A stretch of DNA of 64,000 nt from an uncultured Alphaproteobacteria bacterium (GTDB taxonomy: Bacteria > Pseudomonadota > Alphaproteobacteria > Rs-D84), in contig CAMRWN010000001.1 in the NCBI GenBank assembly GCA_947054455.1, forward strand, positions 4,595 through 68,594, read 5' to 3'. Positions 2,810-56,709 of the stretch are shown piece by piece. Each line of letters starts with the position of its first letter. Position 1 is the first letter of the stretch. Both the position numbers and the translations under genes were made by a program. Below the pieces are notes generated by a model. The model made no database searches. It worked only from the letters and a program-made list of their open reading frames with translations, and was not told the DNA's origin.

Positions 2810-3127
2810 TCAGAATTCCATCAGTTTTACCTGTCCGGGATTGTTTTCAGACGGCGACTTGTGAAAGAAATACCACATTGCCCCAACAAACACGACACCC
2901 ACCCCAACGGAAATCAGCAACAGTTCGGTATTATGATCTTTATTGCTGTGCGCCTTGGCGCCGCCGTACTGGTTGCAATATATCGGCGCGCCGTTTTCAT
3001 CGGTGCCACAAATTGCACTGGAATGACTGCCATTATTGTCAATCGCCCCATCATCGCGCGCGGCATTTGCCGGCATCGCAATCAGTAAAGCCATTGAAAC
3101 AAGCGCCATTGAAATAAATTTAGACAT
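2810..3127 (-). CDS. small exported/membrane-anchored protein
   Basis: ORF track 2810..3154. The internal ATG at 3127 has GGGGG 5 nt upstream and begins a signal peptide (MSKFISMALVSMALLIAMPANA). C-terminal TM segment. 2-nt gap to the U32 gene. Confidence 0.55.
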   Translation of the reverse strand: MSKFISMALVSMALLIAMPANAARDDGAIDNNGSHSSAICGTDENGAPIYCNQYGGAKAHSNKDHNTELLLISVGVGVVFVGAMWYFFHKSPSENNPGQVKLMEF

Positions 3128-52107: not shown

Positions 52108-52183
52108 GTCCCCATAGTTCAACAGGATAGAACAAATTCCTCCTAAGAATTAGATGCAGGTTCGAGCCCTGCTGGGGACGCCA
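52108..52183 (+). tRNA. tRNA-Arg (anticodon CCU)
   Basis: Acceptor GTCCCCA/TGGGGAC, anticodon stem AATTC/GAATT with loop CTCCTAA, T-loop GGTTCGAGCCC, encoded CCA. Confidence 0.88.
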
Positions 52184-53923: not shown

Positions 53924-54301
53924 GTGCGGTCCCCCCTTTCTGTGTATTTTTGTAAATAAAATCAAATTATTTTTGTATTTACGCATTGTATTTACAAAAA
54001 ACAATTTTAATTTTATATTCCTGTTTTCTTTTTGGCAGAATTCCGGTTTCAAGGCGGTTTTCTGGGCTTTTTATTTCTTTTTCTCTTGTCTATACACGAA
54101 TCATAGAACAAAAACGATTCGCAGGTCAAGCAGAAAATTAAATATTTGCATTTTATTTGAAAAAACATGAATTTTACTTTCAAACCCATAAAATCCCATA
54201 CATATATTATAAAATGTCATTGACAACCATAATACGGCGTGCTAGATTTCAATCGAAGTCAGGAAAGGAACGGCGCAGTCCCGCAAAACAAGGACCATAA
54301 A

Positions 54302-54751
54302 ATGTCATTGTTTCTCTCATCTTATGAAAATCGTTTGGATACCAAGGGACGTATTTCTGTACCGGCCTCTTTCCGGGCTTCGGTTGCATCTGACAAATTT
54401 TCGGGTGTGGTGTTATTCCGCTCTTTTACAAACAACTGTATCGAAGGCATGTCAATGTCGCGCATGGAACAGTTGGCGGCGGCCACGGACAAGATGGGCG
54501 TATTCGACCGCGAACTGGACGATTTGTCGGCAATGCTGTTTGCGGATGCGCGCCCGCTGTCGTTTGATTCGACGGGCCGCATAATTATTCCGGCGGACAT
54601 GCTGACACACGCCGGCATACGCGACAGCGCGGTTTTCGTCGGCCGCGGGAACAGCTTTCAAATCTGGTCCCCGGAACAATTCCGCACAGCCCAGGAAAAA
54701 TCACTGGCCAGATTGCGCACCGCCCGCCCCAATTTGAAAATCGCCGAATAA
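54302..54751 (+). CDS. mraZ: transcriptional regulator MraZ
   Basis: Two MraZ repeats: DTKGRISVPASFR and DSTGRIIIPADML. Starts at MSLFLSSYE. Confidence 0.9.
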   Translation: MSLFLSSYENRLDTKGRISVPASFRASVASDKFSGVVLFRSFTNNCIEGMSMSRMEQLAAATDKMGVFDRELDDLSAMLFADARPLSFDSTGRIIIPADMLTHAGIRDSAVFVGRGNSFQIWSPEQFRTAQEKSLARLRTARPNLKIAE

Positions 54752-54789
54752 TTCCCCGTCCGCTGTAATCTAAGCCATCTATCCCCCTA

Positions 54790-55303
54790 GTCATCGCGAG
54801 CGAAGCGTGGCGATCCAGTAAATTGATGTACCTTGCCGCTTTGCTTCTGGATTGCGTCGCTACGCTCGCAATGACAAGGGTGTTTAACAGCCCAGGAAAT
54901 TAATAACCTTTGTCATCGCGAGGAAGCGTACGCGACCGTGGCGATCCAGTCTCTTCATCCCATTTGTCATCGCGAGCGAAGCGTGGCGATCCAGTAAATT
55001 GATGCACTTTGCTGCTTTACTTCTGGATTGCTTCGTGTATCACCCACGCGAACAGGTTCGCGCGGGGCCCGATATCGCTCGCAATGACAAGGGTGTTTAA
55101 CAGCCCAGGAAATTAATAACCTTTGTCATCGCGATGTTTGCTTTTCTACCTTTGTCATCGCGAGCGAAGCGTGGCGATCCAGTAAATTGATGTACCTTGC
55201 CGCTTTGCTTCTGGATTGCGTCGCTACGCTCGCAATGACAAGGGTGTTTAACAGCCCAGGAAATTAATAACCTTTGTCATCGCGAGCGAAGCGTGGCGAT
55301 CCA
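54790..55303. repeat. array of palindromic hairpin repeats (REP/MITE-like), left
   Basis: The 29-nt arm gtcatcgcgagcgaagcgtggcgatccag occurs at 54790, 54966, 55154 and 55276, plus a variant at 54912 and a stub at 55125. It alternates with its imperfect inverse ctggattgcgtcgctacgctcgcaatgac. 54790-54922 equals 55154-55286 exactly. Confidence 0.9.
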
Positions 55304-55349
55304 TAATATTTATTTGCATTTCGAATATTATTTAAGATACAGTATCATT

Positions 55350-55472
55350 ATGCGCGTGGCCGCGCCCCGCCCCGTTTGGTTGGAGGGTGATGAATATATA
55401 GAATAAATCACACTATTGTAAGGTATAAGTTAGGAACCTCCAACCGCCTTGAAAAATTTCAGGCGTTTTTTT
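55350..55472 (+). ncRNA. structured RNA, unit A (short paralog), class unknown
   Basis: Promoter TTGCAT-18-TACAGT (55314-55343). GC hairpin 55352-55365. GGTTGGAGG 55378-55386 pairs with CCTCCAACC 55437-55445. Stem gtgat/atcac closes a 15-nt loop gaatatatagaataa. Terminator 55446-55472. Confidence 0.45.
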
Positions 55473-55509
55473 ATTTGATATTCCAATCTTTTTAAGATAT
55501 ACTACCCAT

Positions 55510-55689
55510 TGTAATAGGGGTCCTATTATGCGAGATTAAGCTCTCGCACAACCAGCGCCCGCGCGGGCGTAAAATGCCAACCCGAATGGGGGTTGGAGGC
55601 CGTGAATATATTGAATAAACGGTGAGCATCTGGTTGTGCAAAAAGCTTAACCTCCAATCCCCGCCCTGTACATTACATGGCGGATTTTT
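55510..55689 (+). ncRNA. structured RNA, unit B, class unknown
   Basis: Promoter TTGATA-17-TATACT (55475-55503). Two 5' hairpins. Long-range helix 55536-55555 / 55630-55650. 12-bp helix 55588-55599 / 55651-55662. Loop gaatatattgaataa. Terminator 55661-55689. Confidence 0.55.
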
Positions 55690-55757
55690 ATTATAATCGG
55701 TGTATGATTTTGATGGAATTTCCATAAAAGTCTGATAAAGTACTGATTATAAATAGG

Positions 55758-55929
55758 TGCATCCTGTTATAGTGAGCCTGAAAAACTCATAACAAAGTCG
55801 CCCGCGCGGGCGTTATCGCGTCCAACCTCATTTGGTTGGAGTCGGTCGAATACACAAAATAAGACCGGGGATTAACTTTGTTATCTTTTTCAGCTCCAAC
55901 CACCTCGAAATAATTTCCGGTGGTTTTTT
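55758..55929 (+). ncRNA. structured RNA, unit C, class unknown (possibly also the leader of the next ORF)
   Basis: Same architecture as B with different helix sequences: 55778-55798 / 55875-55893 and 55834-55841 / 55894-55901. Loop gaatacacaaaataa. Terminator 55900-55929. The 5' end is not well defined. Confidence 0.5.
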
Positions 55930-55952
55930 GTTTTTTGACAATGGGGGCGGGG

Positions 55953-56165
55953 ATGACACTGCATCAAGAAATCGAGGCTATACGCCGGGAACTTAATATC
56001 CCGAAGTACATAGTTTGCAATGCTTTTAATCTGGACGATGATAAGGAATACGACCGGTTGATTAACGGCCGCAAGCCGTTGTCAGTGTACCAGATGATAA
56101 TGTTTATTGATTTGACGCATCGTGTGCCGGACGCACTGACGGATGAATGCGTACGTCGATTGTAG
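55953..56165 (+). CDS. small XRE-like HTH protein
   Basis: ORF track 55920..56165 starts inside the unit C terminator. ATG at 55953 (or 55941). EIEAIRRELNIPKYIVCNAF ... RLINGRKPLSVYQMIMFIDL looks like a Cro/XRE HTH. Confidence 0.45.
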   Translation: MTLHQEIEAIRRELNIPKYIVCNAFNLDDDKEYDRLINGRKPLSVYQMIMFIDLTHRVPDALTDECVRRL

Positions 56166-56177
56166 CGGGCTAATTTA

Positions 56178-56466
56178 CTGGATTGCTTCGCGTTGCTCGC
56201 AATGACAAGAGTGTTTAAAAGCCTGGCAATTAACAACCCTTGTCATTGCGAGGGAGCATATGCGACCGCGGCAATCCAGAAGTAAAGCGGCAAAGCGCAT
56301 CAATTGACTGGATCGCTTCGCGTTGCTCGCAATGACAGGAGTGTTTAAGAGCCTGGCAATTAATAACCCTTGTCATTGCGAGGGAGCATATGCGACCGCG
56401 GCAATCCAGAAGCAAAGCGGCAAAGCGCATCAATTGACTGGATCGCCACGCTTCGCTCGCGATGAC
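56178..56466. repeat. array of palindromic hairpin repeats, right
   Basis: Two 130-bp units (56178-56307, 56308-56437) plus a terminal arm, 56438-56466, that is the exact reverse complement of the left-array 29-mer. Confidence 0.9.
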
Positions 56467-56517
56467 AAGAGTGTTTTTACGAGCGACACATTGACAATGA
56501 GACACAAAGGAGCCGAA

Positions 56518-56709
56518 ATGACGGATGACAAACAATTTTATGCCGATTTGGGGCGCGTGCTTATCGCCGCGCGAATGCAACGACGCCTGGGGATTGATGA
56601 TATGTCGCGTCTGACCCGAATTCCGGCGGCGCGATACCATGCAATCGAATGCGGCGACGAAATAACCGTGCGCGAACTGATTGCAATTCTGTGCAGTCTT
56701 AACACATAA
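56518..56709 (+). CDS. small XRE-like HTH protein
   Basis: AAGGAG 6 nt before the ATG at 56518. LGRVLIAARMQRRLGIDDMSRLTRIPAARYHAIECG. The ORF-track N-terminal extension only translates repeat sequence. Confidence 0.55.
   Translation: MTDDKQFYADLGRVLIAARMQRRLGIDDMSRLTRIPAARYHAIECGDEITVRELIAILCSLNT

Follow-up and report, generated by a model that had tools for sequence, protein, structure and literature searches.

A family of structured 5' leader RNAs with two alternative folds, candidate transcription attenuators of the uncultured Rs-D84 Alphaproteobacteria

What are the three structured RNAs that stand in tandem before a small helix-turn-helix (HTH) gene in an uncultured alphaproteobacterium of the order Rs-D84? 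The window analysed here, a stretch of 64,000 nucleotides (contig CAMRWN010000001.1 of assembly GCA_947054455.1, positions 4,595 to 68,594, forward strand), contains three consecutive units on the + strand, named A, B and C, which a preliminary description of the same DNA had read as paralogous RNAs of no recognised class, kept by selection on their structure and possibly switching between competing pairings. We consider it probable, from the comparative evidence below, that the units are members of a new family of 5' leader RNAs, promoter-proximal and about 170 nt long, which act in cis as riboswitch-like transcription attenuators. The kind of device is known, and what is new is the architecture and the host lineage. 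The earlier observation is confirmed and its interpretation supported, with the amendments given where they arise.

We built the family starting from the motif common to the three units, GGTTGGAG-N5-6-GAATAYAYNNAATAA-N31-33-CTCCAA; the shorter pattern GGTTGGAG-N2-8-GAATA occurs three times in the window against 0.01 expected. A scan of one genome per GTDB species with the pattern GGTTGGAG-N3-9-GAATA-N5-AATAA-N20-50-CTCCAA returned at least 120 loci where, on our own estimate, about one would be expected by chance, and among the matches listed all were gut or rumen metagenome-assembled genomes (MAGs) labelled Alphaproteobacteria, 'Rickettsiales bacterium' or 'Candidatus Enterousia', i.e., order Rs-D84. 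A covariance model (R1, alignment A2; E-values rough) made from 39 diverse members found 141 copies among the collected loci, at 30-163 bits, including about 15 that the exact pattern does not match, and the homologs keep the helices proposed from the window. The element thus occurs in more than 140 copies over about 70 Rs-D84 ('Ca. Enterousia') gut and rumen MAGs, several of which hold at least 4-6 loci each; in the 64 kb of the window the homolog-built model matches just three places, which are units A, B and C. Members of Rs-D84 are uncultured, with genomes below 1 Mb that lack the tricarboxylic acid cycle and respiratory chains (PMC12306168). Three IMG/VR viral contigs also bear the leader (L121, 12022-12194; L122, 8443-8614; L123, 770-942). 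On L121 the gene behind it encodes a secreted protein of 316 aa, whose family also supplies chromosomal cargo at loci L050, L054 and L117, and next to the leader stand phage-like genes, namely a DNA methyltransferase-like and a PLD-type nuclease-like open reading frame (ORF).

Could the units nevertheless be a known RNA? Rfam 15 (4227 models) at gathering thresholds found only three tRNAs in the whole window, all elsewhere than the units; at E-values up to 10 over 55200-56200 the best match (E = 0.13) was an unrelated miRNA model on the flanking repeat. Eighteen homologous loci gave tRNAs only, and a top-scoring homolog (L051) nothing near threshold. The absence of a known class noted from the window alone therefore stands up to these searches. 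As ARAGORN called no gene in 55200-56000 and the tRNA, tmRNA and T-box models of Rfam were silent there, these three identities were rejected. ToxI-type repeats were rejected as well: they are about 36 nt long, head to tail and processed by a toxin endoribonuclease encoded next to them, whereas the units measure 123-180 nt, have a promoter and a terminator, are spaced by 37 and 60 nt and neighbour a 70-aa HTH-like protein. A literature search by motif words and by taxon yielded no description of the RNA, which may be among the thousands of unnamed candidates in large metagenomic screens (PMC8040213).

Unconstrained minimum free energy (MFE) folding produced one architecture in 85 of 125 homologs. 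From the 5' end it comprises a hairpin P1, a G-run, the 5' strand of helix Pa, CCC, the 5' strand of helix Pb, a hairpin Pc and an A-rich linker; then region 1 (CUCCAACC), a loop of 1-13 nt, region 2 (GGUUGGAG) and a hairpin Pe; then CUAU or CAAU, the Pb 3' strand, AUAG or AUUG, the Pa 3' strand and region 3, (C)CUCCAACC; and finally a terminator whose stem begins at the AACC of region 3, followed by a U-tract. In this fold, which we call state T, the 5' G-run would pair with the CUCC of region 3, and Pa and Pb would close a four-way junction bearing Pc, Pd (region 1 paired with region 2) and Pe with its GAAUA...AAUAA loop. The AACC of region 3 would form the base of the terminator, so that polymerase would stop 12-42 nt before the Shine-Dalgarno (SD) sequence.

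The nested fold is well maintained: in the model alignment of 120 sequences, 91.3% of the cells are paired (70.0% in column shuffles, 36-48% with slid partners), 46 of the 53 pairs show changes on both sides, and covariation scores 0.557, where the slid controls reach at most 0.087. Because the model alignment is fitted to the model, the analysis was repeated on a sequence-only MAFFT alignment, with 87.0% of cells paired versus 70.6% and a score of 0.468 versus at most 0.114. A structure-blind mutual-information scan ranked the pairs of state T at the top and gave no covariation signal for a P1 loop kissing the Pe loop or pairing with the A-rich junction. Selection on RNA structure, suggested earlier from three copies, is thus borne out by about 140 homologs, and the comparison indicates that the nested four-way junction and the terminator of state T are its object. 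The Pe loop is near-invariant over about 70 species (family consensus GAAUA-N4-5-(G)AAUAA, matched exactly in 53 of 120 copies). In two homologs (alignment A3) an extra hairpin is inserted between its GAAUA and AAUAA; the '15-nt loop' therefore behaves as if GAAUA and AAUAA faced each other in an internal loop whose cap is dispensable. The loop of P1 is conserved too, as GNRUU (GUGUU 29, GGGUU 9, GUAUU 7 and GAGUU 7 of 120).

Does region 2 have a second partner? In some units GGUUGGAG is re-coded (GUCAGGAG twice, GGCAGGAG, UGCAGGAG, GGUCGGGA, GGUCGGGU and GAUUGGAG), every time with matching changes in both regions 1 and 3, and these units share contigs with canonical ones. GGUUGGAG therefore keeps its pairing with each of the two CUCCAACC strands, the one upstream and the one downstream, in agreement with the competing pairings that the preliminary description had read as a switch. 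The ninth pair of the region 2:3 helix (210:310), which is absent from the 1:2 hairpin, covaries by itself (GC 84, UA 18, UG 8). All three switch strands are re-coded at L041 3377-3587, L064 4997-5214, L016 7212-7384, L024 6047-6217, L015 1628-1800 and L049 654-854; such triplets, e.g., CUCCUGAC / GUCAGGAG / CCUCCUGACC, look like orthogonal versions of the switch.

Two local hairpins and one non-nested pair accompany the region 2:3 helix. In hairpin Pf the flanks of the Pb 3' strand pair with each other, as CUAU/AUAG in 64 sequences and CAAU/AUUG in 39 (pair 275:298: UA 64, AU 39), and as GCA/UGC in unit B and GAU/AUC in unit C. In hairpin Pg the G-run pairs with the CCC after the Pa 5' strand (pair 47:62: GC 78, AU 18, GU 17); its competitor in state T, 47:313, is mismatched in 23 sequences, and the 18 sequences with an A in the G-run have a compensating U in Pg while the competing state T pair is mismatched. 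The non-nested pair 52:272, between the nucleotides after the G-run and after Pe, covaries strongly (CG 53, UA 40, AU 7; 84.9% paired versus 57.8%) and would fit if Pa persists as a pseudoknot with the Pg loop. A second tertiary pair beside it, G50:C274, was rejected, both columns being near-invariant and the few variants confounded by alignment shifts. The earlier remark that the long-range helices either cross or are alternatives agrees with the covariation of Pf, Pg and 52:272, and the local hairpins that it had noted at the long-range strands covary as well. These data show that a second fold, state A, exclusive of state T, is also under selection. In state A region 2 would pair with region 3 over 9 bp, so that the outer helix and the lowest 4 bp of the terminator would be lost; released in this way, the G-run would close Pg around the Pa 5' strand, with Pf closed by CUAU/AUAG on either side of the Pb 3' strand. 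It may be that Pa and Pb are retained as pseudoknots, together with the extra pair 52:272, in which case Pa, the region 2:3 helix, Pe and 52:272 would meet at one junction.

Where does the RNA begin and end? Upstream of the model start the family shows TTG at -35..-33 (T 0.83, T 0.63, G 0.43), TG at -15/-14 and TATAAT at -12..-7 (A 0.69, A 0.79, T 0.73), sigma-70 signals whose positions place the predicted start site at P1; transcription would begin at this 5'-terminal hairpin, and the RNA would then adopt one of the two folds. An internal sigma-70 promoter (TTGAAT of the Pe loop plus TATAGT) was rejected, because its words are unconserved in many copies and its transcript would begin just before the terminator. 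At the other end, 126 of the 141 copies carry a U-tract, the family shows covariation in terminator helices 8-10, and the AACC of region 3 provides the first four pairs of the terminator stem; pairing of regions 2 and 3 would therefore remove the terminator base along with the outer helix. A same-strand SD and start codon follow in 119 of the 141 copies, in about 100 of them 12-42 nt past the U-tract, which leaves no room for a separate promoter. By this arrangement the element is the 5' untranslated region (UTR) of its gene, and the leader/attenuator role once offered as a possible second function of unit C appears to be the main role of the family. A ribosome-mediated leader-peptide attenuator was rejected for want of a conserved short SD-bearing ORF over region 1: an ATG ORF of 6 or more codons behind an SD-like word occurs in only 15 of 120 leaders, and in 31 there is no such ORF.

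The genes behind the leaders are diverse. We catalogued 116 ORFs in 54 clusters, of which XRE-type HTH proteins are the commonest (28 ORFs: 17 HTH_31 and 11 small HTH-like, including the ORF of the window). The other cargo includes 12 secreted Cys-rich proteins of about 140 aa, six secreted peptides of about 65 aa and many singletons with signal peptides; some proteins carry Listeria-Bacteroides (Flg_new) repeats, and there are also an ABC exporter and a GT2 glycosyltransferase. Such diversity would fit a global signal, not a metabolic pathway. The HTH ORF of the window has eleven orthologs behind the same leader, and at loci fetched by the HTH protein alone the leader stood 14-26 nt upstream in five of five. 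Comparison by hhalign of the window HTH group with the HTH_31-positive family gave a probability of 69%; Pfam had no match for the window protein, and a PDB sequence search with the HTH family profile none that was significant.

Since small XRE-type HTH genes are the commonest cargo (28/116), and regions 1 and 2 are the arms of a perfect 8-bp inverted repeat that has a third half-site, the conserved words might act as DNA, either as a palindromic operator (CTCCAACC-N-GGTTGGAG) for the downstream HTH proteins or as part of a mobile promoter cassette or miniature inverted-repeat transposable element (MITE); palindromic repeat arrays do flank the cluster in the window. The operator was rejected because the spacer between half-sites ranges from 1 to 13 nt, which is unfit for a dimeric operator. 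Moreover, six other helices of unrelated sequence covary, strand and spacing relative to the start codon downstream are constant, and copies from one genome share only about 60% identity once the motifs are set aside; nor do the units bear terminal repeats of their own. We regard a DNA-level element as very improbable.

With these parts named, the array in the window reads as follows (all on the + strand).

55314..55343, +: promoter of unit A, TTGCAT-18-TACAGT, by direct reading, at the position of the promoter signals of the family
55350..55472, +: unit A, a 5'-truncated copy (covariance model 56.3 bits, Pa 5' strand deleted), with Pc 55352-65, region 2 (GGTTGGAGG) 55378-86, Pe stem 55387-91/55407-11, Pe loop 55392-406, region 3 (CCTCCAACC) 55437-45 and its own terminator 55446-72
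55475..55503, +: promoter of unit B, TTGATA-17-TATACT, by promoter scan, 10/12 matches
55510..55689, +: unit B, a complete unit (covariance model 94.9 bits; MFE -73.7 kcal/mol, z = -5.3), with P1 55511-29, GAG 55532-34 pairing CUC 55652-54, Pa 55536-42/55644-50, Pb 55546-55/55630-39, Pc 55556-69, region 1 55577-83, region 2 55590-99, Pe 55599-603/55619-23 closing the loop 55604-18, region 3 55651-60 and terminator 55661-89
55733..55741, +: candidate extended -10 of unit C, TGATAAAGT, by direct reading, aligned by MAFFT with the -10 column of the family
55750..55929, +: unit C, predicted canonical leader of the HTH gene (covariance model 97.7 bits; MFE -65 kcal/mol, z = -6.8), with P1 55752-68, GAGC 55774-77 pairing GCUC 55893-96, Pa 55779-85/55886-92, Pb 55789-98/55875-84, Pc 55799-812 and Pe 55843-47/55863-67
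55821..55827, +: region 1 of unit C (UCCAACC), the putative anti-antiterminator strand, paired with region 2 in the MFE fold and changing with it across the family
55834..55841, +: region 2 of unit C (GGUUGGAG), the strand common to the two alternative helices
55848..55862, +: conserved Pe loop of unit C (GAAUACACAAAAUAA)
55893..55901, +: region 3 of unit C (GCUCCAACC), its 5' half pairing with the G-run and its 3' half (AACC) in the terminator stem, or alternatively the whole strand pairing with region 2
55898..55929, +: predicted intrinsic terminator of unit C, AACCACC...GGUGGUU then a U-run, from the MFE fold, overlapping region 3 by 4 nt
55943..56165, +: SD (GGGGGCGGGG, 55943-52) and the 70-aa XRE-like HTH ORF, ATG at 55953, stop ending at 56165, from the ORF list

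The GC hairpins Pc are identical in B and C (55556-55569, 55799-55812), the third lying at 55352-55365 in A; region 2 corresponds to the GGTTGGAG(G) strand of each unit and region 3 to the CCTCCAAC-type strand, and a different short stem closes each of the three 15-nt loops. The promoters, hairpins, loops, long-range helices, CCAACC strands (55577-83 and 55821-27) and T-run ends are all present where the preliminary description had placed them. Three of its points needed amendment. Of the three paralogous units only B and C are complete; A is 5'-truncated and lacks the 5' hairpin P1, the G-run and the 5' strands of Pa and Pb. Unit C begins at about 55750 and not at about 55758. Promoters had been credited to A and B, where they exist, and C also has a candidate, weaker than those two and at the position typical of the family. 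The three unit terminators, which folding and the covariance model recover, went uncalled in a simple terminator scan of the window, presumably owing to the limits that the scan sets on loops and stems.

Unit C would be the working leader that controls the HTH gene at 55953-56165. In folding against dinucleotide shuffles, B and C scored z = -5.3 and -6.8, A only -1.7. Unit A, with a degenerate region 1 and none of P1, the G-run or the Pa and Pb 5' strands, consequently folds by default into the region 2:3 helix; its terminator lies outside that helix in the MFE fold, so that A is predicted to be locked in this pairing with an independent terminator. In unit B the terminator is shifted downstream and begins past region 3, with an overlap of only about 2 nt with the region 2:3 helix. 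Since the terminator of A is independent and that of B nearly uncoupled from the switch, A and B probably end as RNAs of about 125 and 180 nt irrespective of any signal; they may be mere extra promoters and termination checkpoints, or effector decoys. For each unit, identity with the best relatives elsewhere is about 60-65%; those nearest to B are the single leaders of orthologous HTH genes at loci L057 and L003, not unit C, and this points to A, B and C as old duplicates. Five further loci have tandem pairs, and in two of these the pair precedes a member of the same HTH family; the triple array was found only in this window among the loci collected. At L073 two tandem short-form units (2783-2950 and 2957-3116), like unit A without P1 and the Pa and Pb 5' strands, sit directly upstream of a 65-aa ORF. 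A minimal version made of regions 1-3, Pe, Pf and the terminator may thus still be in use.

Might the terminated RNAs themselves be the functional product? A family of trans-acting small RNAs (sRNAs), either anti-SD regulators using CCUCC or protein sponges, that merely lies upstream of other genes would explain why each unit has its own promoter and terminator, why A, B and the upstream members of the five other tandem pairs precede another unit and not an ORF, and why the terminators of A and B are uncoupled from the switch; with the terminator fold as the thermodynamic default, short RNAs should accumulate. The sRNAs cuckoo/alpha-r14/CcsR and AbcR/alpha-r15 of Alphaproteobacteria resemble the units in forming tandem paralogs, each with promoter and terminator, and in carrying CCUCC-type motifs (CCUCC/GGAGG-type motifs being a feature of known alphaproteobacterial sRNAs). 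Families of the cuckoo/CcsR/AbcR type expose CCUCCUCCC or CUCCCA in hairpin loops and act in trans. In contrast to cuckoo/CcsR, CCUCC of the Rs-D84 leader is always helical, the units lie immediately 5' of ORFs and there is no Rfam match; the CCUCCUCCC motif does not occur in 55300-55930. The sRNA explanation also has to contend with the 12-42 nt that separate about 100 of the 141 copies from a same-strand SD and start codon, with no room for another promoter, and with the covariation of the three strands within a unit, seen even in re-coded units that share contigs with canonical ones, which points to pairing in cis. As the CCUCC strand is base-paired in both folds, we think it unlikely that the family consists of trans-acting sRNAs; the units would not be primarily free-standing RNAs, and attenuation in the leader would be the main role. 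The two roles are compatible (terminated riboswitch RNAs acting in trans are known), and an sRNA function is possible as a second role, especially for A and B.

The output of the switch is then most likely control of the terminator. The preliminary description had proposed a switch that exposes or hides CCUCC as an anti-SD strand: the switch itself is supported, whereas its output is likelier to be terminator control, and the CCUCC strand appears better read as the strand common to the antiterminator, the outer helix and the terminator than as a hidden or exposed anti-SD. By energy, nested state A is a median of 14.6 kcal/mol less stable than state T; state T is thus the thermodynamic default and termination would be the default outcome, so that read-through would need a factor, or Pa and Pb kept as pseudoknots. 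An effector, which could be a small molecule, a second messenger or an RNA-binding protein recognising the Pe loop and the junction, would move nascent transcripts to state A and thereby switch on surface and secreted proteins and small XRE regulators.

The same preference for state T would suit a static 5' UTR, i.e., a constitutive cassette in which a strong promoter, a stabilising 5' hairpin and a leaky terminator set the expression level and nothing switches. P1 lies exactly at the predicted 5' end, as do 5' stabiliser hairpins, and the downstream genes are very diverse and without a common pathway. However, a static UTR has no need for a second, exclusive set of pairs, and the region 2:3 helix, Pf, Pg and 52:272 all covary; nor does it explain a Pe loop that is near-invariant over about 70 species. 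We therefore judge a static UTR to be improbable.

Several points weigh against the attenuator all the same. The sequences are related, so that shuffle controls overstate significance and slid controls are the fairer comparison. The collection pattern fixed GGTTGGAG, GAATA, AATAA and CTCCAA; their conservation is overstated accordingly, and only the roughly 15 model-only copies inform on variation. State T is far stabler in nested energy and region 1 is made long before region 3, which would make state A hard to reach without a factor. The heterogeneous downstream genes point to no ligand, no ORF stands behind units A and B, and termination and switching are both deduced from sequence alone.

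How does the leader compare with known regulatory RNAs? It resembles terminator/antiterminator riboswitches (e.g., c-di-GMP-I, GEMM-I) in being a conserved structured 5' UTR with covarying helices and conserved loop or junction nucleotides, in having an intrinsic terminator strand common to an alternative helix, and in occurring in several copies per genome, sometimes in tandem. GEMM-I, too, is multicopy before diverse genes, with cargo rich in secreted or surface proteins and regulators. In contrast to the riboswitches of Rfam, which it matches neither in sequence nor in structure, the Rs-D84 leader has a four-way junction and two flanking local hairpins; unlike GEMM-I-type riboswitches, every unit comes with a promoter of its own, and the family is confined to a single order. 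With a conserved structured 5' UTR domain of covarying helices and an expression platform in which terminator and antiterminator are predicted to be mutually exclusive, the leader is a riboswitch candidate. As in the trp/his attenuators, there are three successive strands of which the middle one pairs with either neighbour, and the 2:3 helix overlaps the terminator stem by 4 nt; as in attenuation and antitermination leaders generally, termination would be the default, and the conserved loop could be a protein-binding site. However, the Rs-D84 leader has no leader peptide, unlike trp/his, and no signature of the BglG/SacY (ribonucleic antiterminator, RAT), ANTAR-target or T-box leaders, whose Rfam models are silent; and its switch is embedded in a covarying domain (Pa, Pb, Pc, Pe, Pg, Pf) much larger than that of the trp/his, RAT, ANTAR, PyrR and TRAP leaders.

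Around the A-B-C-HTH module of the window lie palindromic repeats of about 130-180 bp that resemble repetitive extragenic palindromic (REP) sequences or MITEs, with the core CTCGCAATGACAAG. Their 13 copies occur only in two blocks of the window (54781-55305 and 56172-56470) which are mutually inverted and bracket the module, the last repeat adjoining the promoter of unit A. Within the right-hand array a second XRE-like ORF (56323-56709, +), which probably starts near 56520 (MTDDKQFYADLGRVL...), has no leader copy upstream. Just upstream of the left-hand array stands a solitary mraZ-like gene (54239-54751, +), not followed by rsmH, ftsL or ftsI; about 2 kb further upstream there is a tRNA (52108-52180, +), and between the two lie small ORFs without obvious function.

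What would the element mean for Rs-D84? A further reading, possible though clearly more doubtful than attenuation itself, is that the leader represents the RNA partner in a dedicated antitermination system of RNA and protein, or else an orphan class of riboswitch. It would sense one global signal (a second messenger, or a cue from host or partner) and, via a doubly pseudoknotted antiterminator, turn on the small XRE regulators of Rs-D84 together with a large part of its variable surface and secreted proteins, the phages having borrowed the element too. If this were true, it would be one of the main regulatory devices of these uncultured, genome-reduced (<1 Mb) bacteria: in each genome at least 4-6 genes, and probably many more, stand behind this promoter-bearing RNA element, and they encode mainly lineage-specific surface or secreted proteins and small regulators. 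The comparative evidence for two alternative folds is unusually clean, and the re-coded triplets beside canonical ones constitute a natural test set for the evolution of a three-strand switch. The leader is also a sensitive marker for the annotation of Rs-D84 MAGs. If it answers a ligand or a protein, the known riboswitches and attenuators would gain a new structural class, and organisms still out of reach of cultivation would have a defined regulon and signal.

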